DNA from: Gemmata obscuriglobus | GTDB lineage: Bacteria > Planctomycetota > Planctomycetia > Gemmatales > Gemmataceae | Assembly: GCF_008065095.1 (NCBI RefSeq) | Contig: NZ_CP042911.1 | Location: forward strand, 7,050,001 to 7,082,000 | Direction: 5' to 3' | Length of the DNA stretch: 32,000 nt | Shown here: positions 475-24,607 of the stretch, in pieces | Layout of the letters: each line of letters opens with the position of its first letter | Numbering within the stretch: position 1 is the first letter of the stretch | Made by a program: the position numbers and the translations under genes | The notes under the pieces: model-generated | The model's database searches: none | What the model was told of the DNA's origin: nothing | The model's input: the letters and a program-made list of their open reading frames with translations, nothing else

Positions 475-515
475 GCGGGGCGGTTCCACGTCGGGGCCGC
501 CCCGCATCGTTTTTT
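475..515 (+). terminator. Rho-independent terminator-like hairpin between nhaA and gcvT
   Basis: Perfect 9-bp GC stem GCGGGGCGG (475-483) / CCGCCCCGC (497-505) with a 13-nt loop, then a T6 run at 510-515. It lies 52 nt after the nhaA stop and 13 nt before the gcvT ATG. Confidence 0.6.
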
Positions 516-527
516 ATCGGGCTCACC

Positions 528-1604
528 ATGTCGAACCTGCGCACGCCGCTGTACCAGTGGCACGTCGATCACAAAGCGCGGATGGTGCCGTTCGGCGGCT
601 GGGAGATGCCGGTGCAGTACGCCGGGATCGCGCCCGAGCACAAAGCGGTGCGGTCCGGGGCCGGGCTGTTCGACATCTCGCACATGGCGCGGGTGAACTT
701 TGACGGCCCCGACGTGCTCGCGTTTCTGGAGCGGGTGTTCACCAACTCCGTTGCCACCATGAAGGCGGGGCAGGTCCGCTACGGGCTGGTGTGCAAGGAG
801 GACGGCGGCATCCTCGACGACATCCTCGTGTACCGCCTGCCGGGCAGCTTCGCGGCGGTCGTCAACGCCAGCAACCGCGAGAAGATCCTCGCGTGGTTCG
901 CGCAGCAGCGCACCGGGCTGGCGGTCGAGGTGGACGACCGCACCCCCGCCACGACGATGATCGCGGTGCAAGGGCCGAAGGCGGTGGAGCTGGTCGCGGG
1001 GGTGTTCGCGGACGACGTGAGCGCGCTGAAGTACTACTTCGCAACGCCCAGCCACTACCTCGGCAGCCCGTGCGTGGTGAGCCGCACCGGGTACACCGGC
1101 GAGGACGGGTTCGAGGTGATCGTGCCGAACGCGCTCGGCGAGCCGCTGTGGAACGAGTTCGTCGCGAAGGGGGCCGTGCCGTGCGGGCTGGGGGCGCGGG
1201 ACACACTCCGGCTCGAAGCCGCCATGCCGCTGTACGGCCACGAGCTGAACGAGGGCGTGAACCCGATCCAGGCCGGGCTGGCGTGGGCGGTCAAACTCGA
1301 CAAGGGCGACTTCCTCGGCCGCGACGCGATCCAGAAAGCCGCAACCGCGACCGAACCGGTGCGGGTGGGGTTGGAAATTGAGGGCAAGCGCGCCGCCCGC
1401 GAGGGGTGCCCGGTGCTCGCCGGGGGGCGACCGGTCGGCGGCGTCACCAGCGGGAGCCTGTGCCCGTGGCTGGACAAGTCGCTCGCGATGGGCTACGTCG
1501 AACCGGCGGCCGCCGCGGTGGGCACCAAACTCGAAGTGGACCTGCGCGGCGCCAAATTGCCCGCGACCGTCGTTCAGCTGCCGTTCTACAAACGGAAGAA
1601 GTGA
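528..1604 (+). CDS. gcvT: Aminomethyltransferase, glycine cleavage system T protein
   Basis: ATG at 528 is in frame with ORF 21..1604. Motifs seen: MSNLRTPLYQWHV, GGWEMPVQY, LFDISHM, SRTGYTGEDGFE, ARDTLRLEA. Full-length GcvT architecture, followed by gcvH and gcvP genes. Confidence 0.93.
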   Translation: MSNLRTPLYQWHVDHKARMVPFGGWEMPVQYAGIAPEHKAVRSGAGLFDISHMARVNFDGPDVLAFLERVFTNSVATMKAGQVRYGLVCKEDGGILDDILVYRLPGSFAAVVNASNREKILAWFAQQRTGLAVEVDDRTPATTMIAVQGPKAVELVAGVFADDVSALKYYFATPSHYLGSPCVVSRTGYTGEDGFEVIVPNALGEPLWNEFVAKGAVPCGLGARDTLRLEAAMPLYGHELNEGVNPIQAGLAWAVKLDKGDFLGRDAIQKAATATEPVRVGLEIEGKRAAREGCPVLAGGRPVGGVTSGSLCPWLDKSLAMGYVEPAAAAVGTKLEVDLRGAKLPATVVQLPFYKRKK

Positions 1605-1644
1605 GGGCGCGCCGCGCCCGCGTCATTCAAGGAGCTAGCTCATC

Positions 1645-2034
1645 ATGGCGAACCCGTCGAACCTGAAGTACGCGACCACGCACGAGTGGGCCAAACTGGA
1701 CGGCGACACGGTGGTTGTGGGCATCACCGCGTTCGCGGTTGAGCAACTGACCGAGCCGACCTACCTGGAGCTGCCCGCGGTGGGCACGGCGCTGGCCCCG
1801 GGCGGGAAGTTCGGCGTGATCGAGTCGTACAAGTCCACCTCGGACCTGTACTCGCCGGTCGCGGGGACGGTGGTGGAGCGGAACGACCCGCTGACGGGCG
1901 ACCCGAAGCCGGTGTACGACGACGCCTTCGGCGCCGGGTGGATGCTGAAGATCAAGCTGTCCCCGGGCGCGACGCTCGACCACCTGCTGAGCGCCGAGCA
2001 GTACGACCAGCAGCTCGCGACCGAAGGCCACTAA
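1645..2034 (+). CDS. gcvH: Glycine cleavage system H protein (lipoyl carrier)
   Basis: 129 aa. YATTHEWAK start motif and lipoyl-lysine context GVIESYKSTSDLYSPVAG. AAGGAG Shine-Dalgarno lies upstream of the ATG. Confidence 0.93.
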   Translation: MANPSNLKYATTHEWAKLDGDTVVVGITAFAVEQLTEPTYLELPAVGTALAPGGKFGVIESYKSTSDLYSPVAGTVVERNDPLTGDPKPVYDDAFGAGWMLKIKLSPGATLDHLLSAEQYDQQLATEGH

Positions 2035-2141
2035 CCGTTCGGGCCGCAGGTCGTGAGGTCGCAAAGTCAGTTCAGACGGGGCGGCTTTGCGACCGGGCGA
2101 CGTGTGACTCCCGTTATGACTACCGGTCGCAGGAGAACTTC

Positions 2142-3488
2142 GTGTCTTACGTGCTGAACACCCCGGACGATCAGAAGGCGATGCTGGCCGCGATCGGGGT
2201 TTCGTCGGTCGAGGAGCTGTTCGCCAACATCCCGCCGGAGCTGCGCCTCCCGCGCGAGCTGAACGTCCCGGCCGCGATGTCGGAGATGGAACTCCAGGCG
2301 CACCTGTCGCGGGTCCTCGCCAAGAACAAGGCCGCGGGCGATCTGGTGTGCTTCCTCGGCGGCGGCGCGTACGACCACTTCATCCCGTCCGTTGTCGATG
2401 TGGTCGCGGGGCGGAGCGAGTTCTACACCGCGTACACGCCGTACCAGGCCGAAGCCAGCCAGGGCACCCTCCAGGCGGTCTTCGAGTACCAGTCGCTGAT
2501 GTGCGAACTCACCGGCCTCGGGCTCGCCAACGCGAGCCTCTACGAGGGCGGGTCGAGCGTCGTGGAAGCGGCGTTGATGGCGCTCGGGATCACCAAGCGC
2601 ACGGAGATCCTGATCGCGGACAGCGTCCACCCCGAGTACCGGCAGACGCTGGCGACCTACGCCGCCACGCTCAACTGCACCGTCCGCACGATCGCGTGCC
2701 CGGACGGGGTGCTGAACCCCGCCGACGTGCTGGCCGCGGTGAGCGACAAGACCGCGTGCGTGATCGCTCAGTCGCCGAACTTCTTCGGGCACATCGAAGA
2801 CATGAAGGCGATCGGCGCCGCCGCGCACAAGACGGGCGCGCTGTTCGTCGCGAGCTTCGATCCGGTTTCGCAGGGGCTGCTGAAGAAGCCGGCGGAGTAC
2901 GGCGCCGACATCGCGGTGGCCGAAGGACAGGGGCTGGGCGTGCCGCTCCAGTACGGCGGGCCGTACCTGGGCATCCTCGCGTGCCACGACGAGATGGCGT
3001 ACCGGCGGAAGATCCCCGGGCGCATCGTCGGCGAGACCACCGACCGCAACGGGAAGCGCTCCTGGGTGCTGACGCTCCAGCCGCGCGAGCAGCACATCGC
3101 GCGTGAGAAGGCGACGAGCAACATTTGCAGCAACCAGGGGCTCCTGGCGCTGCGGGCGGCGGTGTACCTGAGCGCCGTCGGCCCGCAGGGGCTCAAGGAG
3201 ACCGCCGAGCTGTGCGTGCGGAAGGCGCACTACGCCGCGGAGCAACTGACGAAGGTCCCGGGCGTGTCGCTCCGCTTCCAGGCGCCGTTCGTGAAAGAGT
3301 TCACGCTGAAGGTGCCGGGCGACCCGGCGGCCGTGCTGGCGAAGCTCCGCGCCGCCGGCTACCACGCTGGGCTGCCGCTGGGCCGGTGGTATCCTGGGTT
3401 GGCCGACTGCGTCTCCGTGGCAGTGACCGAGAAGCGGACGAAGGCCGAAATCGACGGACTCGCGGAGGCGCTGAAGGCGAGCATTTAG
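2142..3488 (+). CDS. gcvPA: Glycine dehydrogenase (decarboxylating) subunit 1
   Basis: GTG at 2142 is preceded by AGGAGA. The product begins VSYVLNTPDDQKAMLAAIGV, a typical GcvPA N-terminus. The ~448-aa length fits the family. The ORF-track start at 1938 overlaps gcvH and is rejected. Confidence 0.9.
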   Translation: MSYVLNTPDDQKAMLAAIGVSSVEELFANIPPELRLPRELNVPAAMSEMELQAHLSRVLAKNKAAGDLVCFLGGGAYDHFIPSVVDVVAGRSEFYTAYTPYQAEASQGTLQAVFEYQSLMCELTGLGLANASLYEGGSSVVEAALMALGITKRTEILIADSVHPEYRQTLATYAATLNCTVRTIACPDGVLNPADVLAAVSDKTACVIAQSPNFFGHIEDMKAIGAAAHKTGALFVASFDPVSQGLLKKPAEYGADIAVAEGQGLGVPLQYGGPYLGILACHDEMAYRRKIPGRIVGETTDRNGKRSWVLTLQPREQHIAREKATSNICSNQGLLALRAAVYLSAVGPQGLKETAELCVRKAHYAAEQLTKVPGVSLRFQAPFVKEFTLKVPGDPAAVLAKLRAAGYHAGLPLGRWYPGLADCVSVAVTEKRTKAEIDGLAEALKASI

Positions 3489-3499
3489 GAGGCCCCGTA

Positions 3500-4291
3500 A
3501 TGCCGTCGCCGTTCCCCGGAATGGACCCGTGGCTGGAGCGCCCAATGGTGTTCCCGGACGTTCATCACGGGCTCATTACCTATTTGAAGGCGGCAATCTT
3601 CGCGGCGCTCCCGCCCGGCTACACCGTTTCCACTTCCAACCGCGTGTGGGTGGATATCGAGCCGGATGTCATCGTTGTTGGTCCCGATCCGGCGCCGGGT
3701 GACGGGGCGCACCTGGCGGCCACGATGTCAGCCGCCGGGCTACTTGCGATCAAAGCAGATGAGGTGCTCTCGGACCCGATTGAGGAGCCGTACCTGGCGA
3801 TCGTCTCCGGCGAGGGCGACCGGTTGGTGACGGCGGTCGAGGTGCTGAGCTTGGCGAACAAGCGGGCCGAGGACCGCGGGCGGACCTCGTACCGGCACAA
3901 GCAGAACGAGTATCGGCTTTCGAACGTGAACGTGGTGGAGATCGACCTGTTGCGCGGCGGCCCGCACACGACGGCGGTTCCGCTCCCCCGGTTGCGAGCG
4001 GTAGCCCCCAACTGCGATTACCACATCAGCGTGATGGTGGCTGGCTCGCCAAGGCACTACTTCGTCGCGCCGATCACGTTGGCCGATCGGTTGCCACATG
4101 TACCGATTCCGCTCGACTCCGGGGTGGAACCGGTCACCATCGATTTGCAAGCGGTGTTTGACCGGTGTTACGACGAGGGCGGGTTCGCGCGCCGCGTGAA
4201 GTACGCCAAACAGCAACCGGAGCCGTCGTTGACGCGCGAGCAGCAGGCGTGGGCGGAAGACCTCCTCCGCACGAAGGGGCTGCTGCCGTGA
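3500..4291 (+). CDS. DUF4058 family protein, copy 1 (263 aa)
   Basis: The N-terminus MPSPFPGMDPWLE is the hallmark of DUF4058. AGGAGG at 3487-3492 lies 7 nt before the ATG and overlaps the gcvPA stop. Motifs EPDV and VEVLSLANK resemble PD-(D/E)xK signatures. Confidence 0.8.
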   Translation: MPSPFPGMDPWLERPMVFPDVHHGLITYLKAAIFAALPPGYTVSTSNRVWVDIEPDVIVVGPDPAPGDGAHLAATMSAAGLLAIKADEVLSDPIEEPYLAIVSGEGDRLVTAVEVLSLANKRAEDRGRTSYRHKQNEYRLSNVNVVEIDLLRGGPHTTAVPLPRLRAVAPNCDYHISVMVAGSPRHYFVAPITLADRLPHVPIPLDSGVEPVTIDLQAVFDRCYDEGGFARRVKYAKQQPEPSLTREQQAWAEDLLRTKGLLP

Positions 4292-4347
4292 ACGAGGACG
4301 AGGGCGAGGCGTTTATTCGCGCGATCGTAGGAGTCGCCATTGAGTGA
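4288..4347 (+). pseudogene. Truncated remnant of a TIGR02996-type gene (19 codons)
   Basis: GTG at 4288 overlaps the copy-1 stop as GTGA. It reads VNEDEGEAFIRAIV, then diverges and stops. The same junction at 5197 opens the intact VSEDEAFIRAIVDSPGDDTPRLVYADWL gene. Confidence 0.45.
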
Positions 4348-4408
4348 GTCGTGCGGTAGGGGCGGGGCCGTTCTGAGCGTGTGAGTAAAGTCGTGAGGAG
4401 ATAGGCCA

Positions 4409-5200
4409 ATGCCATCGCCGTTTCCGGGAATGGACCCGTGGCTTGAAGGCGAGGAGGTGTTCCCAGACCTCCACCACACGTTGATCACGTACCTTCGCGA
4501 CGTCGTGAACGCGGCGCTGCCTCCAGGTTACGTTGCGACGACAGCTAACCGCGTGTGGGTAGACGACGAGCTGCGCCGCGAGCCGGACGTGGCCCTGTTC
4601 GGCCGGGACCGCGGTTCGAACGGCGGTGATGGAATCGCGGTCGCCCTGGAGGGACTGGTTGCGATCGGCCAGCGCCTCTCCCCGGAGCCGATCGAGGAGC
4701 CTTACCTGGAAATCGTGTCCGCAAAGGGCCGGCGGCTCGTCACCGCGGTCGAGGTGATCAGCCTGACGAACAAAAAAGCCGGTGAGCAGGGGCGGAAGAC
4801 ATACCAGGACAAGCAGCACGAATACGCACTCTCAGGCGTGCATCTGGTAGAAATCGACCTGCTCCGTCGCGGCCCGCACGTGACCGCGACGCCGCTCCGG
4901 GAACTGCACAAGCGACTCGGAACCTTCGACTACCACGTGAGCGTGGTGGTCGGCGGGGTGGTGCCGTCGCACTTCGCGGTGGGCGTCAAGCTGGCGGACC
5001 GGTTGCCGGCGTTCGAGATCCCGCTGGACCGCGACGTGCCACCGGTCCGGGTGGACCTCCAACCGCTCCTCGACCGCTGTTACGACAGCGGTAAGTATGC
5101 GGTGCTGGCGAACTATCGCGAGCCGTGCGATCCGCCGCTAGCGCCCGAGCAGCAGGCGTGGGCGGAAGACGTCATCCGCGCGCGGGGACTGCTGCCGTGA
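4409..5200 (+). CDS. DUF4058 family protein, copy 2 (263 aa)
   Basis: MPSPFPGMDPWLE N-terminus with a GAGGAG Shine-Dalgarno upstream. Same length as copy 1 and collinear with it, roughly 55-60% identical by eye (not computed). Confidence 0.8.
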   Translation: MPSPFPGMDPWLEGEEVFPDLHHTLITYLRDVVNAALPPGYVATTANRVWVDDELRREPDVALFGRDRGSNGGDGIAVALEGLVAIGQRLSPEPIEEPYLEIVSAKGRRLVTAVEVISLTNKKAGEQGRKTYQDKQHEYALSGVHLVEIDLLRRGPHVTATPLRELHKRLGTFDYHVSVVVGGVVPSHFAVGVKLADRLPAFEIPLDRDVPPVRVDLQPLLDRCYDSGKYAVLANYREPCDPPLAPEQQAWAEDVIRARGLLP

Positions 5201-6012
5201 GCGAGGACGAGGCGTTTATCCGGGCGATCGTGGACAGCCCTGGGGATGACACCCCGCGGCTGGTGTACGCCGACTGGCTCGACGACCGCGCCGACCCGCG
5301 GGGGCCGTACCTCCGCGCCGAGCGCGAGGCCGTTGAGACGGGCGACATCGCGCGGCTGCGCGAACTCGCGGCGGGGCTCGATCCGGTGTGGATAGCTCGC
5401 GTGAGTATGCCGCCGGTCGGGGTGTGCGTTGAGCACGTTGAACTGGAAAGGCGCGGGCCAACCGTGTCTCGTGCCGACATTGCTGCCATAGAGAGCACAA
5501 TCAGCGCCAGTTTTCCACCGGATTACGTTGCGTTCTTACTGAACTACAACGGCGGCGAAGTACCTGCTTTTCCGCGCGTTCAGACTGCCGAAGGTGAAAT
5601 CACCCGCGTATTCGAGTCCGGTTGGGTATTTGCTTCTTGCGGGCAGGTAAAGCGGTACCAGTTACGCCCGGATGGTTTTGATTTGCTCAGTGGGCAAGGC
5701 GCCGGACATCTGCTGCCACTCATTGAACCCGTTGAAAGCTGGCTTACACGCCACGTCGTCATCGGTCGCGGTCCGGATGTAATTGACTGGATGTTCCTTG
5801 GCGTTGATGGCGCGGATCGCGGGAAGCTTCACTTTCTCGACACGAGCACCGAGATCGAAGCTGGCGTTCGGCATGCGATGAATAAGCCGCCAAGGGCAAC
5901 GAGCCTCGCGGAGTTTCTTGCGTCGCTTTCTGATCCCGGTTGGTTAGGTTTGGTTCCAGGAAATGAACTCCCGCCAGCGGAAATACGCGGCGGCAATGAG
6001 ATTCCGTTCTGA
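5197..6012 (+). CDS. TIGR02996 N-terminal domain fused to an SMI1/KNR4 (SUKH) domain
   Basis: The GTG start overlaps the DUF4058 stop (GTGA). The N-terminus EAFIRAIVDSPGDDTPRLVYADWLDDRADPRG matches the TIGR02996 signature. The C-terminal half IAAIESTISASFPPDYVAFLLNYNGGE matches the SMI1/KNR4 signature. Confidence 0.75.
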   Translation: MSEDEAFIRAIVDSPGDDTPRLVYADWLDDRADPRGPYLRAEREAVETGDIARLRELAAGLDPVWIARVSMPPVGVCVEHVELERRGPTVSRADIAAIESTISASFPPDYVAFLLNYNGGEVPAFPRVQTAEGEITRVFESGWVFASCGQVKRYQLRPDGFDLLSGQGAGHLLPLIEPVESWLTRHVVIGRGPDVIDWMFLGVDGADRGKLHFLDTSTEIEAGVRHAMNKPPRATSLAEFLASLSDPGWLGLVPGNELPPAEIRGGNEIPF

Positions 6013-6019
6013 GTGAGCT

Positions 6020-7558
6020 ATGAACAACACGCAATCGACCGAAGTGATTTTCGAGCTCTCGAAGCCCGGGCGCCGGTGCCACCGGCTGCCCGCGTGCGAC
6101 GTGCCGGCGTCGAAGCCGCTCGCGGAGCTGATCCCGCAAGATCACCTCGCCAGCAGCCCGCCGCCGCTGCCCGAAGTGGGCGAGATCGACCTGATCCGCC
6201 ACTACACGAACCTGTCGGCTCGCAACATGAGCATCGACACCAACTTCTACCCGCTCGGGTCGTGTACCATGAAGTACAACCCGAAGCGGCACGAGCGGCT
6301 CGCCGCGCTCCCGCAGTACGCGAACCTGCACCCGCTCCAGCACGACGACACCACTCAGGGGATGCTCGAGATCCTCTTCGAGATGCAGCAGTTCCTGGCG
6401 GAGATCAGCGGGCTGCCGGCGGTGTCGCTGCAACCCGCCGCCGGGGCGCACGGCGAACTCGCGGCGCTGTTCGTCGCGGCGGCGTACTTCAAAGATAAGG
6501 GCGAGACGCACCGCAAGAAGGTGCTCGTCCCCGACTCCGCGCACGGCACCAACCCCGCCAGCGCCGCGCTCGCCGGGTTCGACACCGTCACCGTGAAGAG
6601 CGGGCCGAACGGGCTCGTCGACCTCAACGACCTGAAGGCGAAACTCGGCGACGACACCGCCGTGTTCATGATCACCAACCCGAACACGCTCGGGCTGTTC
6701 GAGACGCAGATCAAGACGATCACCGACCTGCTGCACAGCAAGGGCGCGCTGGTCTACCTCGACGGCGCCAACATGAACGCCATCATGGGCATGACCCGCC
6801 CAGGCGACTTCGGCGCGGACATGCAGCACTACAACGTCCACAAGACGTTCACCGGCCCGCACGGCGGCGGTGGCCCCGGGTCCGGGCCTATTGCTGTGAG
6901 GGACTTCCTCGCCCCGTACCTTCCGGCCCCGGTGGTGGTGAAGGACGGCGACCGGTTCAAGCTGAACTTCGACATGCCCAAGAGCATCGGGCGCGTGCGG
7001 AGCTTCTTCGGCAACGTCGGCATCCTGTTCCGCGGGTACTGTTACATCCGCACGCTCGGGCCGGACGGGTTGAAGCAGGCCAGCCAGCAGGCGGTGCTCA
7101 ACGCAAACTACCTGCGCAAGCGGATCAGCGAGGGGTTCGAGATCCCGCACGCTGGCCCGTGCATGCACGAGTTCGTCGCCAGCGGCCGGAACCTGCTCCG
7201 CGAGAAGAAGATCCGGGCCATCGACCTGTGCAAGCGGCTCCTCGACTTCGGGTACCACGCGCCCACCGTGTACTTCCCGATGGTGGTGGCCGAGGCGCTC
7301 ATGATGGAGCCCACCGAGACCGAGAGCAAGGAGACGCTCGACGCCTTCGCCGACGCGCTCCTGAAGATCAAGGACGAGGACCCGGAGACGCTCAAGACCG
7401 CGCCGCACACGCACATCGTGAGCCGGCCCGACGAGGTGAAGGCCGCGAAGGAGCCGCGGCTCCGCTGGCGCGCCGCCCCGGCGGTGACGGTCCCGTCGAG
7501 CGCGGTCCCGGCGGCCGAGCGGGTCGTGACCACGGGCAGCCCGGTCGGCAGCCCGTAA
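6020..7558 (+). CDS. gcvPB: Glycine dehydrogenase (decarboxylating) subunit 2
   Basis: 512 aa. Motifs: IFELSKPGRR, LGSCTMKYNP, PDSAHGTNPASA, and PLP-lysine context NVHKTFTGPHGGGGPG. The start lies 7 nt after the preceding stop. Confidence 0.93.
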   Translation: MNNTQSTEVIFELSKPGRRCHRLPACDVPASKPLAELIPQDHLASSPPPLPEVGEIDLIRHYTNLSARNMSIDTNFYPLGSCTMKYNPKRHERLAALPQYANLHPLQHDDTTQGMLEILFEMQQFLAEISGLPAVSLQPAAGAHGELAALFVAAAYFKDKGETHRKKVLVPDSAHGTNPASAALAGFDTVTVKSGPNGLVDLNDLKAKLGDDTAVFMITNPNTLGLFETQIKTITDLLHSKGALVYLDGANMNAIMGMTRPGDFGADMQHYNVHKTFTGPHGGGGPGSGPIAVRDFLAPYLPAPVVVKDGDRFKLNFDMPKSIGRVRSFFGNVGILFRGYCYIRTLGPDGLKQASQQAVLNANYLRKRISEGFEIPHAGPCMHEFVASGRNLLREKKIRAIDLCKRLLDFGYHAPTVYFPMVVAEALMMEPTETESKETLDAFADALLKIKDEDPETLKTAPHTHIVSRPDEVKAAKEPRLRWRAAPAVTVPSSAVPAAERVVTTGSPVGSP

Positions 7559-7621
7559 AGAGAAACCCGTGGCCGGCGAACCATAAGCAGGGAACGATCC
7601 TCACTCCTGGTAGGGCCGGCC

Positions 7622-7969
7622 ATGGCGGACAAAGAACCGCGGTTGATCGTGACGACCGCGATGGGCGTGGACGGGTTCGAGGTGGCCGAGTACCTCGGCG
7701 TGGTGCGCGGGATCGTGGTCCGCGCCGCGACCATCACACAGGGCATTCGCGGCGCGTTCGGCAGCTTTTTCGGGGGGAATGTTGCCGCATACGAAGAGGT
7801 GTGTGAGCAGGCACGCTCGGACGCGTTCAAGCGGATGGCCCGGCAGGCCCGCGAGATCGGTGCCGACGCCGTCATCGGCATGGCCTACGACGCGACCGAG
7901 TTCGCCCCGAACGTGACCGAGGTGTTGGCCTACGGCACCGCGGTCACGCTTCGCCCGAAGTCCGCATAG
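7622..7969 (+). CDS. YbjQ/UPF0145 family protein
   Basis: 115 aa with the typical family pattern: LIVTTAMGVDGFEVAEYLGVVRGIVVRA, GADAVIGMAYD, and AYGTAV. Confidence 0.8.
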   Translation: MADKEPRLIVTTAMGVDGFEVAEYLGVVRGIVVRAATITQGIRGAFGSFFGGNVAAYEEVCEQARSDAFKRMARQAREIGADAVIGMAYDATEFAPNVTEVLAYGTAVTLRPKSA

Positions 7970-8003
7970 CAAACTGGTCTTCCGGTTCGTGCGATGAAAA
8001 CTG

Positions 8004-8095
8004 TTTGACAGGATAGACAGGATTTCAAAGACGGTCGCGCGCTAGATCCGACCTTCCTCTTCGATCCTGTCATATCTTGTTAATCCTGTCGAAAA
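8004..8095. repeat. Short copy of the ACAGGAT heptad inverted-repeat element
   Basis: Left end is TTTGACAGGATAGACAGGATTT (8004-8025). Right end is GATCCTGTCATATCTTGTTAATCCTGTCGAAAA (8063-8095), which carries the reverse-complement heptads. Same motif family as 28080-28253. Confidence 0.55.
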
Positions 8096-8225
8096 CCCCT
8101 TCGCGCCGTGACAATTTTCTCAAACCGAAGCGCTCTCGCTGTGACTGGCCGGGTAGGCCAAAATGTTACGACCTGCGATCTTCCGGGCGCGTCCACGCCC
8201 GTCTGACTTGAGAGGTGATGGAGGT

Positions 8226-8678
8226 ATGGCGCACGTCACCAGCATCGTTTACCGTCCGAAAAAGACCGGCCGTCCCCAAGACCGCTACGAGCGCGTTCCG
8301 GCCGAGCGCGTGCAACTCGCCCCGTTCAAGGGAATCGTCGGCGACCAGAAGGGCGGTTCCACGAAGCGCCAACTCAACATCATGCTCGCCGAGACGCTCG
8401 CCGAACTCGGCGCCGAGGGCTTCAAGGTCGCACCGGGCGAAATGGGCGAGCAGATCGTGCTCACCGGCCTCGCCCCGGCGGCGCTCGCGGAAGGCACGCA
8501 ACTCAGGCTCGGCGGTGCGGTGATCGAGGTCGGCATTCTGCGCACCGGGTGCGCGCGGTTCGAGATGATCCAGGGCCGGCCGCGCGGTCTCGTCAAAGGC
8601 CGGCTCGGTGTCCTCGCAACCGTCGTGAGCGGGGGCGAGGTGGCGGTCGGTGACGCGGTTGAGGTCGTGCCGAGCTAA
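8226..8678 (+). CDS. MOSC domain-containing protein
   Basis: ATG at 8226 is preceded by GGAGG. The 150-aa product has the pattern GIVGDQKGG, PGEMGEQIVLTGL, and the conserved Cys in RTGCARFE. Confidence 0.7.
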   Translation: MAHVTSIVYRPKKTGRPQDRYERVPAERVQLAPFKGIVGDQKGGSTKRQLNIMLAETLAELGAEGFKVAPGEMGEQIVLTGLAPAALAEGTQLRLGGAVIEVGILRTGCARFEMIQGRPRGLVKGRLGVLATVVSGGEVAVGDAVEVVPS

Positions 8679-8907: not shown

Positions 8908-11900
8908 ATGCGTCGATTGATTGCCCTCGCCACGGGGCTTTTGCTGCTCGTTAACGGAATTCGCGCCGATGACGCCATCCCGGCCGAAACGGTCGTGAGC
9001 GTCAAACGCGCCACCGCTTACATCCGGGCTGAAGGCACAAACTGGAACGGCACGGGCTCCGGGTTCGTCATTTCGGTGAATAAAGATACGGTCCTGCTTG
9101 CCACCAATTACCACGTTATTTCCAGCCCGAGTGCCGAAAAACGACAACGGCCGGCCGAGTTCACCACCAGCACCAAACAGGTCACCGTAACGGCAGTGTT
9201 CAACGGTGGGACCAAGAACGAGGTGGAGTCGCGGGCCGAGGTGATCGCGTGCGATCCCGACAACGATCTCGCTATCCTCCGTGTAACGGGCCTCAAGGCC
9301 CCGCCGGCGGCGATCGATTTTGCCAGCGCGCCCGCCCCCGTCGAAACAATGACGGTCTACACGTTCGGCTACCCGTTCGGGCAGTCGCTCGCGACGGGCA
9401 AGGGCGCGCCGGCGATTACTGTGGGTAAGGCGTCGGTATCGAGCCTGCGGTTGGACGACGCCGGCGAACTCAGCCGGGTGCAGATCGACGGCTCTCTGAA
9501 CCCCGGCAACAGCGGCGGCCCGATGGTCGATACCAAGGGGCGACTCGTGGGCGTCGCCGTCTCCCGCGTCCGCGACGGCCAGGGCATCGGGTTCGCAGTT
9601 CCGGCGGCCGAGTTGGGGCGGCTCATGAAGGGACGAATGGGCGGCGTGCATCTGACCGCCCGGAAGGGGGACGACAACAAACTCGTCGTGAAGGCCGAGG
9701 TCGGGCTGATCGATCCGCTGGCGGCGCTCAAAGGAGCCACCCTGCACTACGTCGTCGTCGCGCCCAAGGGGGCACTGCCGAAACCGGGCGAACCGGTGAG
9801 CAAACACCCCGGAGCGAAGTCGGCCGTGCTCAAGTTCGACGGCGGAGTGGCCACGGCCGAACTGACGCTTGGGGCCACCGACGGCGAGATCGTTGTCCAG
9901 GCCGTCCCGGATGGCGTGCCGACCGGCGCCGGCCGCGTTCGCACCTTTCCGCTTACCGTTCCCAAGGGTGCCAAGGCGGTCGTGCTCGGCGAACCGGGCG
10001 TTCCCGGCGGCGCCGGTGCCGGGGAAACGGCCGCCCCGCGCGGGTGGAAGGAGTACACCCCGCCAAACAAGACGTTTAAAGTCTGGTTCCCCGACAACGT
10101 GAAGGTCGAAGAAGAGCAAAAGGCCACGCCGATCCAGATCGACGATCCCGCGCCCGCGGCGCCGTTCCCGGCAATGCCACAGTTTCCAGCCATGCCCCCG
10201 ATCCCGGCCCCGCCGCCGCTGCCCGGCTTCCCTCCGCCCCGGTTCCCGGCGCTACCTCCTCCGCCCCGGTTCCCGGCTCTGCCTCAACCGCCCCGGCTCC
10301 CGAACCTCTTTAACAGGGTCTACATCAACGTCAGTTCGGCCGTTTGTGCCGTGCCCGACGGTCCGAGTTACGTCGTCGAGCAGGTCATCATCACCCCGCC
10401 CCGGGGGCCGGTCAACGCGGACGAGATCCACCGCCTGCTCCGCCAGGTGGCAATGGGTAAAGGAGACGCAAAGGTTACGCGTGAAACGGACGTGCAGATG
10501 GGGCCGTTCAAGGGCAAAGAGTACCTGATCGAGCGGGAGCGGGGGGCGGTCCGCGCCCGATCGTTCGTCATCGGCAGCAGTTTCTACCTGCTCCGCTCGA
10601 TCGGCTCCCTCGACGAGGTCCAGTCCGCGGACAGCACACGGTTCCTGGAATCCTGCCGGCTTGAGAAGCCGGCGCCGCCACCACCCGCCGTTCCGGGAGC
10701 AACCGTCGCCGGTGGGACCCCGCACGACACCACGTTCAACGACCCTGTGCCCGCCAAGGGTGCCCTCGTCGGGGTCGAGTTCGGTTTGGGGAAAATCGGC
10801 GAAAACAGGACGGTGACTGCGGCCCGCGCGGTGTTCCAGGTGGGCGGTACCGAGTCGTACGGCCCGTGGCACGGGCCGGAGCCGGCACCCGCTGACAAAT
10901 CCAGGGTGGTTGCGAAGACGGGCTACGTGCTGACCGGGCTGAGCGTCCGTGCCACGGCGTTCTGGGTGCAAGGCGTCACCGCGACGTTTACGAAACAAAC
11001 TGAGGGCAAGCTCGATCCAAAGGACAGCTACGAAAGCGACCCGATCGGCTCCAAAGACGGCCCCGACAGCGTGGCGGTAGGTGGAAAGGCGGAGGCCCCG
11101 ATCGGGTTCGTGGGCAAGACAGGTGCGCGCGGGCTGAGCGGCCTCGGGTTGGCGTTCAAAGCCGTTGGGGCCCCGCCCCCGGCGCGTGCGACCACACGCG
11201 GGCCGCGCACCCACGGCGGCGCACACGACTCGGAACACCGCGAGGTCGCCCCCGCCGGCGGCTACCTCATCGGACTGGAAGTCGGCATGAGCAAGTGGTT
11301 CAACAACGATGTCGTCGGGTCGGTGCGCGCGGTTTACCGCACCGGGGATAAAGAAACGCTCGGCGAACAGTTCGGAACACTTGCGGGTCCGGCGGTGAAG
11401 GTCGTGGCCAAACCGGGGTACGCGGTCGGCGCGCTGGCCCTGAAAGCCAGGGGCGGGCTGGACAGTATCGTGATCACGTTCATGAAGGTCGTGGACGGCA
11501 AACTGGACCCGAAAGACAGTTACGAGAGCGAACGCCTCGGCGGACCCGGCGGACCCGGCGGACGCGAGCCGGTCCGAGTGGGCGGCGACGGTACACTCGT
11601 CGTCGGGCTCCTCGCCCGGGCGAACCACAAGGACGTGACCGGGCTGGGGCTGATCTACCCGGACACCAACAAACCGGGGTTGGACGCGCCGTGGCCCCGT
11701 GGGCTCCCCACTCAGATTCAAGGCGGGGGTGGTGACCCCGAGTTCCGCGAAGTCGGCCCCGAAGGCTCGGTCCTGGTCGGGCTCGAGGTCGGTGTCGGGC
11801 GGTTCTTCGACAATCCGGTAATCAAGTGCGTCCGCCCGGTGTTCCGCGGCGGCGATAAGGAAACCACGGGTGAGTGGCACGGACCGACCGATCAGACGGT

Positions 11901-12183
11901 GGTGAAAGAGTTCGTCAAGGTGGTCGCCAAGCCGGGCTACGCCGTGGGGGTGCTGACGGTCCGGACGGGACTCGGGGCGGACGGGCTTTCGATCACGTTC
12001 ATGAAGGTCGTGGACGGCAAGCTCGATCCAAAAGACAGTTACGAAAGCGAATGGGTGGGCGGGAAAGGTGGCGGCGAAGGAAAAGTCGGGGACGGGACGC
12101 TGGCCATCGGGCTGATCGGAAAAGCCCGTGCCGACACCGTCAGCGGGTTCGGCTTGCTTCACCCCATTGCACCGAAGAAGTAA
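8908..12183 (+). CDS. Secreted multidomain trypsin-like (S1) serine protease with C-terminal tandem repeat domains
   Basis: Signal peptide MRRLIALATGLLLLVNGIRA. Catalytic triad contexts are NYH(69)VI, DND(120)LAILRV and GNS(202)GGPMVD. Downstream come a beta-rich region, a proline-rich linker and three ~150-aa repeats. Confidence 0.8.
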   Translation: MRRLIALATGLLLLVNGIRADDAIPAETVVSVKRATAYIRAEGTNWNGTGSGFVISVNKDTVLLATNYHVISSPSAEKRQRPAEFTTSTKQVTVTAVFNGGTKNEVESRAEVIACDPDNDLAILRVTGLKAPPAAIDFASAPAPVETMTVYTFGYPFGQSLATGKGAPAITVGKASVSSLRLDDAGELSRVQIDGSLNPGNSGGPMVDTKGRLVGVAVSRVRDGQGIGFAVPAAELGRLMKGRMGGVHLTARKGDDNKLVVKAEVGLIDPLAALKGATLHYVVVAPKGALPKPGEPVSKHPGAKSAVLKFDGGVATAELTLGATDGEIVVQAVPDGVPTGAGRVRTFPLTVPKGAKAVVLGEPGVPGGAGAGETAAPRGWKEYTPPNKTFKVWFPDNVKVEEEQKATPIQIDDPAPAAPFPAMPQFPAMPPIPAPPPLPGFPPPRFPALPPPPRFPALPQPPRLPNLFNRVYINVSSAVCAVPDGPSYVVEQVIITPPRGPVNADEIHRLLRQVAMGKGDAKVTRETDVQMGPFKGKEYLIERERGAVRARSFVIGSSFYLLRSIGSLDEVQSADSTRFLESCRLEKPAPPPPAVPGATVAGGTPHDTTFNDPVPAKGALVGVEFGLGKIGENRTVTAARAVFQVGGTESYGPWHGPEPAPADKSRVVAKTGYVLTGLSVRATAFWVQGVTATFTKQTEGKLDPKDSYESDPIGSKDGPDSVAVGGKAEAPIGFVGKTGARGLSGLGLAFKAVGAPPPARATTRGPRTHGGAHDSEHREVAPAGGYLIGLEVGMSKWFNNDVVGSVRAVYRTGDKETLGEQFGTLAGPAVKVVAKPGYAVGALALKARGGLDSIVITFMKVVDGKLDPKDSYESERLGGPGGPGGREPVRVGGDGTLVVGLLARANHKDVTGLGLIYPDTNKPGLDAPWPRGLPTQIQGGGGDPEFREVGPEGSVLVGLEVGVGRFFDNPVIKCVRPVFRGGDKETTGEWHGPTDQTVVKEFVKVVAKPGYAVGVLTVRTGLGADGLSITFMKVVDGKLDPKDSYESEWVGGKGGGEGKVGDGTLAIGLIGKARADTVSGFGLLHPIAPKK
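10231..10305 (+). repeat. 27-nt tandem repeat (about 2.8 copies) encoding PPPRFPALP
   Basis: CCTCCGCCCCGGTTCCCGGCGCTACCT (10231-10257) and CCTCCGCCCCGGTTCCCGGCTCTGCCT (10258-10284), plus a partial third unit to 10305. The repeat lies in frame inside the protease ORF. Confidence 0.75.
10706..12165 (+). repeat. Three tandem ~150-aa domain repeats (period about 505 nt) inside the protease ORF
   Basis: Repeats span about 10706-11160, 11209-11660 and 11715-12165. Each contains G-x-EVG, VVAKPGYAVG, ITFMKVVDGKLDPKDSYES and G-x-GL blocks. The KLDPKDSYES-coding stretch is nearly identical at nucleotide level between repeats. Confidence 0.8.
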
Positions 12184-21824: not shown

Positions 21825-22733
21825 TCACCCACCCGCCCCGCCTTTGCCCGGAAAGCTCGCGCTCCACCGCGTGCCGAGTGGCGGTGACGGCCGATCAGTC
21901 AGCAGAACCTCAAGCGCCCACTGGCCGTCGATGCGGCTCCCGGTGCGGCACGCGTTGAGCAAATCGGCGTGGGCACAGCCCGCGTCTTGCAGCGCGTCGG
22001 CAAGGATCGGGAGCGCGTCCACCCGATCCGTATCGCGAATGGAGCGCGCGATGTCTCGCGCGGTGTGGTTGTTGAACGCGAGCCAACGCTTCACGTCCCG
22101 CTTTGGGGGCGATCTCTTCTTTCTCGCGCGGCACGGAATCCAGTCGGTGTAGTCTTCTGAAACCTCGTTGCCAGCGATCGAGCGCGTGTAGACTTTAACC
22201 CAGGTCACGAACTCGGTGAACGAGTTGCTTCGCCGTTCCACTTGACGGCTGTCGAGTGAACACCAGTAGACAGGATACTCCAGCGGATCTGTCGTCGTCG
22301 GCTCGGCGGGGTCCCAGGCGAACGCCCCTTCCGAGCCGTCGGAATCGTCCTCTTCAGGCTTCCACACGAAGTTGGGTTTGTTCATGTTGTCGCCAAAGAA
22401 AACGAACCGGCGGAGCCGTTCTCGCTGAGCGGGCGGATAACGGTTGGCGCGGGAGTTCGTGTGCCTCCGCACCGCGTTTGTGGCCCGGAGGATCGTCGCG
22501 CAGCCCCACGCGTTTCGTTCCGGTGTGATTGGAAGAAGGCGCAGCATCCAGTCGAAACCGCCGAACGCCCCAAAACGCATCGCGAACGCGCGGTACGACG
22601 CCGGCAGCGGTACGCCAAGAGCGGCCTCGGTGGCGGCCAGTTCGGCTTCCGTGACGACGGGGCAAAGATCATCCAGTTTGTGGATGACACGAATCTGGCT
22701 GAACACCGCGTCCCACGGTTTCGCTTCGGCCAC
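21825..22733 (-). CDS. SMI1/KNR4 (SUKH) domain protein with a C-terminal LADALQDAGC-type helical domain
   Basis: GTG at 22733 is the first start below the upstream hairpin. TEAELAATEAALGVPLPASYRAFAMRFG is a SUKH signature. The C-terminus ALPILADALQDAGCAHADLLNACR resembles a planctomycete repeat-companion motif. Confidence 0.6.
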   Translation of the reverse strand: MAEAKPWDAVFSQIRVIHKLDDLCPVVTEAELAATEAALGVPLPASYRAFAMRFGAFGGFDWMLRLLPITPERNAWGCATILRATNAVRRHTNSRANRYPPAQRERLRRFVFFGDNMNKPNFVWKPEEDDSDGSEGAFAWDPAEPTTTDPLEYPVYWCSLDSRQVERRSNSFTEFVTWVKVYTRSIAGNEVSEDYTDWIPCRARKKRSPPKRDVKRWLAFNNHTARDIARSIRDTDRVDALPILADALQDAGCAHADLLNACRTGSRIDGQWALEVLLTDRPSPPLGTRWSASFPGKGGAGG

Positions 22734-22770
22734 GGGCGAGCCCTCTGTGCGGCACGTCGTTGGGGCGGCT

Positions 22771-22886
22771 TTCCCTGGGACCGCGGCCGTCCCGGCCGCT
22801 CGTATCCCCACGCTGTTGCTCCACACTTCCCGTTGAAGCGACACCACACGCGAAGCAGCGGCCGGGACGGCCGCGGTCCCAGGGAA
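22771..22886. repeat. Perfect 30-bp inverted repeat with a 56-nt spacer, possible terminator of the sulfite reductase gene
   Basis: I verified that 22771-22800 (TTCCCTGGGACCGCGGCCGTCCCGGCCGCT) is the exact reverse complement of 22857-22886. It lies directly downstream of the stop at 22895 (minus strand). Confidence 0.85.
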
Positions 22887-22894
22887 GAAACCAG

Positions 22895-24607
22895 TTACGC
22901 CGGGGCGCCGATCAGCTCCTTCAGCTTCGGCAGCCCGACGCGGGTGCAGTAGTCGCCGAACAGCTCGCCATTCGATCGCTCCGCCGCGAACGCCGCGAAC
23001 ACCTTGGACAGCTTCGGCACGATCTGCTCGATGGGCACGCCGTCCTGGATCTCGGTGTTCAGCCGGCGGCCGTAGCTGTCGCCGCCGATGTACAGCGTGT
23101 ACTTCGTGCCGCCGCGGCCCACGATGCCGACCTCGCTCTGGTACGGCCGCGCGCACCCGTTCGGGCAGCCCGTCATCCGCACGCTGATCGGCTCCCCGGC
23201 CAGCCCGGCGTCCTTCAGCGCCACTTCAAGTTGATCGACCACACCGGGCAGCGCCCGCTCGCTCTCGGTGATCGCCAGCGGGCACGTCGGGATCGCCGGG
23301 CACGCCATGCTCCACCGCTGCACCTGCGACAGCGTTTCCGGACGCGGGATGCCGTACTCGCTCAGCATCGAATCGACGCCCGCGCGGTCGTCCATCGTCA
23401 GCCCGCACAGCATGATGTCCTGCTGCGCGGTCACCCGGATGTCCGGCTTGTACTTCGCAACGATGGCGCGGAGCCCGCTCCGGAGCCGCATCGCGCCCTC
23501 GTCCCGCACCCGGCCGTTCTCGACCGACAGCCCCAGGAAGTATTTCCCGCCCCCCATCCCCTGCCAGCCGTGGTGCAGGTCCAGCCCGGTGATCTCCACC
23601 GGCCGCGGGTCGCGGCGCGGCCCCTTGAAGTAGTCGCGGTAGAAGACCTCGCGGAACTTCTCCAGCCCCCAGTCCTTCATCACGTACTTGAGCCGCGCCC
23701 GCTTGCGGTTGCTGCGGTTGCCGTGGTCGCGGAACAGCTTGCACACGCCCTCCGCCGCCATCAGCACCTCGTCGAGCCCGATGAAGCCGACGGGCTGCGC
23801 CAGCAGCGGGTACGTGTCCGGGTTGCTGTTCGTCTGCCCCTGGCCGCCGCCGGCGAACAGGTTGTAACCGACCGGCTGGCCGCCCTCGCTGATCGCGAGG
23901 AACCCGAGGCACTGCGCCAGGAGGTCCGTGCAGTTGTCGTGCGGCAGGCTGAACGCCACCTTGAACTTCCGCGGCAGGTACGTCTTGCCGTAGAGCGGCT
24001 CGTCGATCTCCGGGTTGTCGGTGAACTTGGCGGGCTCGCCGTTCAGCCAGATCTCGTGGTACGACTGCTTGCCGGCCTTCGGCGCGAGGTGCTCGGCCAC
24101 CGCGTCGCAGTCCCGCTGCATCTGCGCGCGGGTGGGGTCGGGCAGCGGGGCCGGGCACGACAGCACGTTGCGGTTCACGTCCCCGCACCCGCCGAGCGTG
24201 GTGACGAGGCTCGCGTTGATGCCGGCCATCGTCGCTTTCAGGTTGCCCTTCAGCACGCCGTGGAACTGGATGCTCTGGCGCGTGGTGAGCCGCAGCGCCC
24301 CGTTCGCGTACTGGTCCGCGATGTCGTCGAGCGCCAGCCACTGGTCGGCGGTCAGCTTCCCGCCCGGCATCTTCAGCCGGATCATGAACATGTACGCCTT
24401 GCCCACGCCGGCCTTCGCCCGCGCCTTGCGCGCGTCGCGGTCCTCCTGCTCGTAGCTCCCGTGGAACTTGATCAGGCTCTTGTTGGCGTCGCTCAGGTGG
24501 TCGATCGAGGCGTCGGCGATCTCTTCGGCCAGCGTACCGCGAAGGTACCGCCCTTCCGACTTGTGACCTTCGACGGGGGAGAGTTTCGGCGCGGTTTCGT
24601 CGGACAT
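22895..24607 (-). CDS. cysI: Assimilatory sulfite reductase hemoprotein (siroheme/4Fe-4S)
   Basis: 570 aa, the same length as E. coli CysI. Shared motifs are YLRGTLAEE, FHGSYEQEDRD, YLPRKFK, MACPAIPTCPLA and TGCPNGCARP. No cysJ is adjacent, so the electron donor type is unresolved. Confidence 0.88.
   Translation of the reverse strand: MSDETAPKLSPVEGHKSEGRYLRGTLAEEIADASIDHLSDANKSLIKFHGSYEQEDRDARKARAKAGVGKAYMFMIRLKMPGGKLTADQWLALDDIADQYANGALRLTTRQSIQFHGVLKGNLKATMAGINASLVTTLGGCGDVNRNVLSCPAPLPDPTRAQMQRDCDAVAEHLAPKAGKQSYHEIWLNGEPAKFTDNPEIDEPLYGKTYLPRKFKVAFSLPHDNCTDLLAQCLGFLAISEGGQPVGYNLFAGGGQGQTNSNPDTYPLLAQPVGFIGLDEVLMAAEGVCKLFRDHGNRSNRKRARLKYVMKDWGLEKFREVFYRDYFKGPRRDPRPVEITGLDLHHGWQGMGGGKYFLGLSVENGRVRDEGAMRLRSGLRAIVAKYKPDIRVTAQQDIMLCGLTMDDRAGVDSMLSEYGIPRPETLSQVQRWSMACPAIPTCPLAITESERALPGVVDQLEVALKDAGLAGEPISVRMTGCPNGCARPYQSEVGIVGRGGTKYTLYIGGDSYGRRLNTEIQDGVPIEQIVPKLSKVFAAFAAERSNGELFGDYCTRVGLPKLKELIGAPA

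Follow-up and report, generated by a model that had tools for sequence, protein, structure and literature searches.

The glycine-cleavage (gcv) operon of Gemmata obscuriglobus was analyzed within a stretch of 32,000 nucleotides (nt) of its chromosome (contig NZ_CP042911.1, positions 7,050,001 to 7,082,000 of the forward strand), referred to below as the window. In this operon gcvPA and gcvPB, which encode two subunits of one enzyme, are separated by a 2.5-kb segment containing two DUF4058 genes and a gene in which a TIGR02996 module is fused to a SUKH (SMI1/KNR4) domain. An initial annotation, made from the letters alone, had described this split, and the listing of open reading frames (ORFs), direct reading and family scans agree on it. 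Comparison of the same junction in related genomes indicates that the segment is probably a hypervariable island of promoter-less, conflict-type cassettes that ride the gcv operon across the Gemmataceae.

A genome scan seeded with DUF4058 yielded 78 loci, which were mapped with tblastn. In most of them gcvPA is followed by one to four DUF4058 genes, with or without further genes, and then by gcvPB, an order found in the genera Gemmata, Frigoriglobus, Fimbriiglobus, Limnoglobus, Urbifossiella and Zavarzinella. Since this sample is biased towards DUF4058, a metagenome scan anchored on gcvPB was added, the gene assignments at each locus resting on tblastn and Pfam. Among the 39 loci whose gcvPB is at least 77% identical to that of the window, 9 carry both DUF4058 and TIGR02996-SUKH at the junction, 11 DUF4058 only, 8 TIGR02996-SUKH only and 3 other small genes only, while gcvPA and gcvPB are adjacent in 3 and 5 are unresolved. 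Below 77% identity (30 loci), none carries both, 2 carry DUF4058 only, none SUKH only and 3 other small genes only; the two genes are adjacent in 22, and the remainder comprises 2 unresolved loci and 1 with an unassigned 718-nt insert. With gcvPA adjoining gcvPB in 22 of the 30 distant loci, adjacency is the outgroup state, the separation of the two genes is not a matter of chance, and interruption of the junction characterizes the Gemmataceae as a family.

The location is constant and the content is not. Complete junctions hold from zero to five DUF4058 copies and, across the Gemmataceae, from zero to three TIGR02996-SUKH genes, and one Gemmataceae-like locus (L098; L numbers denote loci of this survey) has no insert between gcvPA and gcvPB. 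Written from gcvPA to gcvPB, with D for DUF4058, T for TIGR02996-SUKH and X for a PD-DExK family considered below, the order is D1-relic-D2-T in G. obscuriglobus, X-D1-D2-T in G. algarum, X-D1-T-T-T in Gemmata sp. JC717, D-T in Gemmata sp. SH-PL17 and T only in G. massiliana, and the cultured Zavarzinella formosa has DUF4058 only. The initial annotation had raised the question of whether the same arrangement is ancestral and conserved among relatives as a part of gcv function: the location is indeed family-wide, but the content is hypervariable, and nothing ties the insert to gcv function. At three loci (L166, from Gemmataceae bacterium LR594584.1, L090 and L093) gcvPA does not lie upstream of gcvPB, and the order is DUF4058, phosphofructokinase, two small genes, SUKH, SUKH and gcvPB; there the island stayed with gcvPB after a rearrangement.

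Comparison of G. obscuriglobus with G. algarum revealed sharp boundaries to this variability. Synonymous divergence (dS) is 0.01-0.31 in 11 flanking genes, 0.52-0.62 in the DUF4058 genes and saturated in the TIGR02996-SUKH gene. At the DNA level the flanks are 98% and 94.6% identical and the DUF4058 region 82%, and identity in the SUKH domain is undetectable; a nucleotide comparison of this domain with both G. algarum and JC717 found no similarity. The 95-98% identity to the sister species holds up to the gcvPA stop, the 150-nt windows bordering the insert are 95-100% identical, and the first 150 nt of gcvPB match those of G. algarum at 100%. The SUKH protein of G. obscuriglobus is 56% identical to that of L038, a relative at greater distance (gcvPB 88%), and 41% identical to that of the sister species. 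Between SH-PL17 and G. massiliana, whose flanks are 95% identical, the difference is a whole DUF4058 ORF, codon-exact, spanning the gcvPA stop to the TIGR02996 start, which is a GTG within GTGA in one genome and an ATG in the other. The 5' ~130 nt of the TIGR02996 gene that follows are 91.5% identical in these two genomes; the remainder is unalignable and the SUKH domains are unrelated. A fixed site, conserved flanks, variable content and a sharp edge of divergence, the marks of a variable island, are thus all found here.

The DUF4058 genes themselves are old and maintained. The two window proteins are 55% identical, which identifies the copies as old paralogues rather than the products of a recent duplication; recent tandem duplication was ruled out by this value together with the existence of two old paralogue types that span genera. 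In a neighbor-joining ordering, computed without support values, DUF4058 copies form paralogue types whose orders and combinations vary, and DUF4058-1 groups with copies from other genera that stand at varying positions in their arrays. The ratio of nonsynonymous to synonymous divergence (dN/dS) is 0.11-0.27 (0.11-0.15 for DUF4058-2), which, with the near-universal intactness of the genes, indicates that they are functional and not decaying. Taken together, the identity boundaries, the ORF-exact difference, the SUKH swaps and the mixed paralogue orders point to recombinational exchange of cassettes at conserved "handles." This cassette-like turnover backs the earlier proposal that the inserted genes hitch-hike on the operon.

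Within the window the insert is tightly packed on one strand and is most likely expressed from the gcv operon (coordinates in Table 1). The AGGAGG over the gcvPA stop is separated from the DUF4058-1 ATG by 7 nt (3493-3499), and a 7-nt gap (6013-6019) lies between the SUKH stop and the gcvPB start; the overlap with the stop, the gap to gcvPB and the shared strand were read in the sequence as the initial annotation had given them. Its statement that the insert "must be" co-transcribed is too strong: a search of the + strand from 505 to 8300 turned up no terminator-like site, nor was a promoter-like site detected, which fits co-transcription without proving it. Both DUF4058 stops sit in a GTGA whose GTG is in frame with a TIGR02996-type ORF, as had been noted; the ORF after the first copy, however, is a 19-codon relic, and the overlap, taken earlier as a sign of translational coupling, is not specific to this pair of genes. 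The spacer that follows the relic is kept in G. algarum. In a repeat search of 3000-6500 the two homologous DUF4058 units matched each other, but no attC-like or boundary repeats were found, and an Rfam scan of the window (1-32000) found no family at threshold and no glycine riboswitch upstream of gcvT. The G+C content of 5501-6000, within the SUKH domain, is 0.56, against 0.65-0.70 in the surroundings.

What kind of protein DUF4058 might be was approached through motifs, profiles and a structural model. Both window copies match PF13267 over positions 1-253 of its 254 (cut-off 25 bits), and the EPDV, VEVxSLxNK and VEIDLLR motifs claimed for them in the initial annotation were found in both. 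In 142 DUF4058 copies (39-100% identity), D60 is present in 137, E115 in 140, S118 in 140, K122 in 141, K135 in 138, E148 in 140 and D150 in 140; 135 of the 142 keep D60, E115, K122, E148 and D150 together, and 138 of the 142 are 250-279 amino acids (aa) long. The acidic/lysine signature of Uma2 and other PD-(D/E)xK proteins (D ... E-x-S/K ... K) is therefore present in the aligned residues. The Pfam Uma2 profile gives a weak match to DUF4058-2 (0.016; 15.2 bits against a cut-off of 27) and reaches E<=1 in 59 of 72 homologues (best 1.8e-4) over the region from a helix to the PD strand, and no family other than Uma2 showed up in the Pfam scan of these 72. An hhalign comparison of DUF4058 with 42 Uma2 proteins aligned 39 columns across the VEVxS..Y..K..EY..GV core (P 7e-4, probability 26%). 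An AlphaFold2 model of DUF4058-2, built from the 72 homologues (pLDDT 88, pTM 0.89), found no match in the Protein Data Bank (PDB) at E<=0.001 with Foldseek (E 0.13); the PDB matches of highest probability, none significant, were 1wdj (0.84, TM 0.58 on the target), 3ijm (probability 0.63, rmsd 4.2 over 140 columns) and then NucC. Against viral structures, the higher-probability matches included DUF2726 and other PD-(D/E)xK-type proteins, again none at E<=0.001, and a DUF4058 profile search of PDB sequences returned nothing even at E 10. On these weak but convergent indications DUF4058 is probably a PD-(D/E)xK protein of divergent Uma2-like type, whose sequence carries an inserted loop and, at the C-terminus, an additional domain; the likeness proposed earlier is thus upheld by the weak Uma2 matches, the hhalign core and the residues, but not by a significant structural match. 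The listed DUF4058 homologues are 247-273 aa long with PF13267 as their sole precomputed Pfam family, and neither in them nor in the window copy was a trafficking or secretion domain found at the N-terminus. PADLOC matched neither DUF4058-1 nor DUF4058-2, and the literature searched makes no mention of DUF4058 or TIGR02996.

Other gene families reside at the same junction. Family X (~210 aa, beginning MAYSEFDLADV) gives a PADLOC match to PD_DExK (CRISPR-associated; 1.3e-46) and no Pfam or NCBIfam match; it was seen at L003 4381-5019 (G. algarum), L165 3500-4138 (JC717), L007, L011, L017, L024, L063, L094 and L110, and is absent from the G. obscuriglobus junction despite 98% identical flanks. 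Family Y (75-95 aa, pattern M..DDIR.LL.A.PF.PF...DGR; e.g. L034 2949-3176 and 3195-3422, L024 4955-5206, L099 2391-2630, L132 3339-3596) occurs one to three times per junction, has no Pfam, NCBIfam or PADLOC match, and is the sole insert at some loci, outgroups included. A protein with a DUF4062 domain (PF13271, 1.3e-26) is encoded in the junction at L100 4910-6004, L043 from 5055 and L033 by genes whose low third-position G+C suggests a recent foreign origin. Directly 5' of gcvPB at L034 (3505-3948), L028 and L111 lies a gene for a protein of 147-187 aa ('MSWDIFVQDLPEG...') without a family match, preceded by a short TIGR02996-like remnant; it appears to be one more of the variable partners that stand C-terminal to the TIGR02996 head.

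Nor is the gcvPA-gcvPB junction the only one affected. The gap from gcvH to gcvPA exceeds 500 nt in 24 of 74 loci, most of these being 700-900 nt long with an ORF of ~240-270 aa. A phmmer search of the gcvH-gcvPA inserts with one Uma2 protein found nothing, a negative due to Uma2 divergence, as Pfam later matched them: 6 of 6 tested inserts are genuine Uma2 (1e-14 to 1e-21), including those from outgroup loci without a DUF4058 insert. Examples are L011 1037-1750, L064 1860-2609, L133 1648-2409 and L129 3162-3890; in the window this gap (2035-2141) is without a Uma2 insert. Judged by these family matches, a second junction of the gcv operon is colonized by a related, nuclease-like family. Distant DUF4058 genes (39-46% identical; L065, L060, L067/L069, L080 and L083) are in turn wedged among unrelated same-strand genes with very small or overlapping gaps: between hisG and a class-III aminotransferase gene, after a pyrimidine-nucleoside phosphorylase gene, after a LOG-family gene, and before an RNA-methyltransferase or an alpha/beta-hydrolase gene.

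An alternative explanation is that the cassettes are selfish elements of the homing type, in which DUF4058, Uma2 and family X would cut empty or different junction alleles and be copied into them by repair, with SUKH and the small genes as passengers. PD-(D/E)xK homing endonucleases exist, I-Ssp6803I being an example. The attraction of this explanation lies in the ORF-exact gain and loss of DUF4058 at a precise site between flanks of 95% identity, and in the repeated colonization of junctions, three PD-(D/E)xK-type families being found at two junctions of one conserved operon. The synonymous divergence of the insert above that of its flanks with sharp edges, the different orders of DUF4058 paralogue types between genomes, and the location of distant DUF4058 genes between same-strand housekeeping genes would suit it as well. 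The long-term intactness of DUF4058 argues against it: rather than a cycle of invasion and decay, we find full length in 138 of 142 copies, motif residues in 135 of 142 and dN/dS of 0.11-0.27. In addition, the paralogue types are retained across genera roughly in step with gcvP divergence, a scan of viral contigs found no DUF4058 relatives, and tandem stacks of up to five copies would be atypical of homing genes. We therefore regard homing as unlikely.

The second gene kind of the island could be assigned with more certainty. The fusion protein matches TIGR02996 at residues 3-44 (62.4 bits against an NCBIfam cut-off of 29.05) and SMI1_KNR4 (PF09346) at 31.1 bits (cut-off 25.4), and its structural model (pLDDT 88.8) matches 3d5p in Foldseek (E 2.2e-4, probability 1.0), with further matches of the SUKH domain to 2icg, 2prv (YobK), Knr4 and Syd. 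The SUKH (SMI1/KNR4) assignment of the initial annotation is thereby confirmed at the level of profile and predicted fold; in PADLOC the protein gave only a match at 0.044, which is not meaningful. The relic at 4288-4347 aligns with the starts of intact TIGR02996 genes over ~40 nt, after which homology breaks: the two units, each a DUF4058 gene with the start that follows it, align through the DUF4058 stop and ~40 nt more, whereupon the first unit diverges and ends. In JC717 an intact TIGR02996-SUKH gene comes after the DUF4058-1 orthologue, and the truncated version is common to G. obscuriglobus and G. algarum. The relic, set against the intact gene of JC717, indicates that the present array arose by a rearrangement that cut an older DUF4058-TIGR02996 unit. 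Elsewhere in the window, at 21825-23156 on the - strand, an ORF has a SUKH-like core motif, being weakly matched by the TIGR02996-SUKH profile (8.9e-5). By eye, the stretch at its C-terminus ('ALPILADALQDAGC') is similar to helices of the TIGR02996 type, and the ORF may be another of this genome's many SUKH paralogues.

The initial annotation had gone further and proposed a plausible selfish or toxin-immunity-like pair. In this explanation DUF4058 would be a nuclease toxin neutralized by the coupled TIGR02996-SUKH protein, and the pair would persist by addiction on the operon. Several points speak for this idea. SUKH proteins are immunity proteins for nuclease toxins, including those with a REase fold (PMC3113570), the SUKH fold is confirmed, and the immunity-type gene lies directly 3' of the putative toxin gene, through the GTGA overlap, in the order seen in polymorphic toxin systems. 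At loci where both genes occur, TIGR02996 nearly always stands behind the last DUF4058, 29 of 29 DUF4058-to-TIGR02996 junctions are 4-nt overlaps ([A/G]TGA), and Limnoglobus roseus carries a DUF4058+TIGR02996-SUKH unit outside gcv.

The distribution of the two genes does not bear out such a pair. In the set of loci with gcvPB at least 77% identical, counted at the gcvPA-gcvPB junction, 9 loci have both genes, 11 DUF4058 only, 8 SUKH only and 11 neither, so that the genes occur together 9 times where 8.7 are expected by chance; complete junctions alone give 5, 5, 3 and 4. The statistical linkage of DUF4058 with SUKH or TIGR02996 genes for which the earlier proposal had called is accordingly not seen at this junction. 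Intact DUF4058 genes with their conserved residues are common without a neighboring SUKH gene, as in Zavarzinella formosa, a situation not expected of a toxin and its cognate immunity gene; SUKH stands alone in G. massiliana, L084 and L086; and the DUF4058:SUKH ratio of arrays reaches 5:0, 4:1 and 1:3. DUF4058 evolves slowly and is without a trafficking domain, whereas SUKH domains are swapped wholesale with no sign of co-variation. The 4-nt overlap, moreover, also joins DUF4058 to gcvPB in 9 of 19 cases, to family Y in 8 of 9 and to family X in 2 of 5. Chance-level co-occurrence and the existence of each gene kind alone suggest that DUF4058 and SUKH are not a fixed toxin-antidote pair. The data do not agree with an obligate relationship of toxin and immunity gene, although immunity might be supplied in trans from another part of the genome, and we consider the toxin-immunity explanation distinctly unlikely. 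That the inserted proteins serve glycine cleavage, for example by processing the operon mRNA or by binding or regulating the P-protein, is very improbable, for although the gcvPA/gcvPB position is kept family-wide, the TIGR02996-SUKH subfamily was recovered by homology directly 5' of gcvPB in 4 of 4 sampled contexts and DUF4058 is stop/start-coupled to gcvPB in 9 of 19 direct junctions, the content is hypervariable, the insert is absent from L098 and most outgroups, related DUF4058 genes adjoin unrelated genes, SUKH domains are swapped between near-identical operons and no family here has a known metabolic role.

We thus favor an island of independent cassettes, against which several points must be weighed. 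The nuclease-like fold assignment of DUF4058 is sub-threshold by Foldseek (E 0.13), hhalign (probability 26%) and the Pfam Uma2 gathering score. The raised dS of the insert could in part reflect codon bias weaker than that of the gcv genes. The metagenome sample may count related organisms more than once, and some of its "SUKH only" contigs are short upstream. Finally, given the invariable overlap at all 29 junctions and the unit of Limnoglobus roseus, DUF4058 and TIGR02996-SUKH may be functionally linked in some looser way.

The island is made up of ORF-sized, promoter-less cassettes in the orientation of the operon, one behind the other. In the mechanism that we propose, these would be transcribed by read-through from the gcv promoter. 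They would be translated either from their own Shine-Dalgarno sites or via the 4-nt stop/start overlaps, an arrangement that would also keep gcvPB translated. Content would change by recombination at handles, namely the gcvPA and gcvPB ends, with the gcvPA 3' end as left boundary, both of the conserved DUF4058 termini, and the TIGR02996 module. The outcomes seen in the comparison are DUF4058 genes gained or lost codon-exactly, tandem arrays, and SUKH swapping behind a constant TIGR02996 head, with DUF4058 and TIGR02996-SUKH behaving as independent cassettes. By analogy, DUF4058 is likely a stand-alone Uma2-type nuclease, a "solo toxin" or paralogue cassette in the sense of Makarova et al. (2009), and TIGR02996-SUKH, following Zhang et al. 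(2011), is likely a polymorphic binding protein of the immunity type that counters non-self toxins; a part in glycine cleavage is unlikely for either.

A bolder extension, which we consider doubtful, would make DUF4058 and Uma2 a class of chromosomal operon-junction nuclease cassettes, inserted or exchanged codon-exactly between conserved same-strand genes and spreading or retained by cutting DNA; in a variant, the constant TIGR02996 head would dock variable SUKH sensors on the DUF4058 nuclease to form a new two-part defense system. If true, such cassettes would depend on transcription by the host and on stop/start coupling, and bacterial chromosomes would have their own equivalent of the homing genes that stand free in phages.

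Table 1. The gcv operon and its insert in window coordinates
Feature	Coordinates	Strand	Basis or remark
gcvT	528-1604	+	ORF listing and family scans
gcvH	1645-2034	+	ORF listing and family scans
gcvPA	2142-3488	+	Pfam GDC-P 1.6e-120; gene call in CP025958.1; upstream flank of the island
AGGAGG, Shine-Dalgarno-like	3487-3492	+	sequence reading; overlaps gcvPA TAG stop (3486-3488)
DUF4058-1, 263 aa, "type 1" paralogue	3500-4291	+	PF13267 6.1e-53, 180.2 bits
TIGR02996 gene relic, 19 codons	4288-4347	+	starts at GTG within the DUF4058-1 GTGA stop
Spacer	4348-4408	+	GAGGAG at 4395-4400, 8 nt 5' of DUF4058-2 ATG
DUF4058-2, 263 aa, "type 2" paralogue	4409-5200	+	PF13267 1.4e-54, 185.6 bits
TIGR02996+SUKH fusion gene	5197-6012	+	TIGR02996 and SMI1_KNR4 above cut-offs; GTG start codon within the GTGA that ends DUF4058-2
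Constant helical N-terminal module of the fusion	5197-5421	+	TIGR02996 2.4e-17 (aa 3-44); five helices in the model
Variable SUKH (SMI1/KNR4) domain and disordered tail	5422-6012	+	SMI1_KNR4 4.2e-7; Foldseek
gcvPB	6020-7558	+	NF003346 6.2e-211; downstream flank of the island
YbjQ-family gene	7622-7969	+	ORF listing and family scans

A second large insertion/deletion difference in the window is a gene at 8908-12183 (+) for a 1091-aa trypsin-like repeat protein; G. algarum and JC717 lack this gene there, between flanking MOSC and sulfatase genes that are otherwise collinear.

As far as we found, neither a variable island of codon-exact cassettes that parts the two subunit genes of one enzyme within their operon nor a constant TIGR02996 handle before swappable SUKH domains has been described, while the components resemble known kinds, namely Uma2 cassettes, SUKH arrays and core-gene hot spots. 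The locus is a compact natural experiment, in which one junction with 0-5 DUF4058 and 0-3 SUKH genes undergoes codon-exact changes beside near-static genes, and it suggests that conflict-type islands can sit inside a housekeeping operon between subunit genes, apparently without breaking the operon. The Uma2 superfamily is among the most expanded uncharacterized families in cyanobacteria and planctomycetes and is without a known activity. The proposed mechanism offers testable ideas on how such cassettes are expressed, by read-through and stop/start coupling, and exchanged, at handles that include the TIGR02996 module. The contrast between window and family also cautions against deducing toxin-immunity pairs from one genome.

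Among known systems, free-standing homing endonuclease genes lie between conserved genes, as do seg and mob in phage T4, and include the PD-(D/E)xK enzyme I-Ssp6803I. The island shares with them putative nuclease-fold ORFs placed precisely between conserved genes and polymorphism for presence and absence. It differs in that DUF4058 is under long-term purifying selection, forms tandem arrays without a sign of a decay cycle, and resides in the chromosome of a free-living bacterium rather than in a phage. Variable hot spots between core genes, which harbor defense and immunity islands, and integron-like stacks of promoter-less cassettes are known as well, and the island resembles these in its fixed site, variable content, sharp drop in identity and promoter-less ORFs of one orientation. 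Unlike the hot spots, it lies inside an operon, between two subunit genes of one enzyme; unlike in integrons, no integrase or mobile-element genes were seen, no attC-like repeats were found in 3000-6500, and the joints are stop/start overlaps.

Tandem arrays are a known feature of SUKH genes, of which Zhang et al. counted 21 paralogues in G. obscuriglobus (PMC3113570). The island shares the SUKH fold with these immunity arrays (Zhang, Iyer, Aravind 2011) and with B. subtilis YobK, and it likewise has divergent tandem paralogues (three in a row in JC717) and rapid replacement between close relatives; being supernumerary, tandem and fast-changing, its SUKH genes match the immunity genes of Zhang et al. 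In contrast to the arrays, the island SUKH domain is fused to a constant TIGR02996 head, no gene for a secreted multidomain toxin lies nearby, and the gene is embedded among housekeeping genes of one operon instead of adjoining a toxin or secretion locus.

The closest relatives of the DUF4058 cassettes would be the Uma2 proteins (PF05685, COG4636; structures 1wdj and 3ijm), considered likely "solo toxins" (Makarova et al. 2009). DUF4058 falls below the Pfam threshold of that family, nuclease activity being putative in both, and is set apart by a ~45-aa insertion that separates the PD strand from the E-x-S strand, an additional ~100-aa domain at the C-terminus and an invariant N-terminal PFPGMDPW motif. 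Its likeness to Uma2, weak but consistent, lies in the PD motif, the pattern VEVxS...K...Y and a GV..(E/Y)..(I/V)D strand; like DUF4058, Uma2 genes have many paralogues, often in tandem cassettes and rarely adjoining a known antitoxin, and in related genomes true Uma2 members occupy the neighboring gcvH-gcvPA junction.

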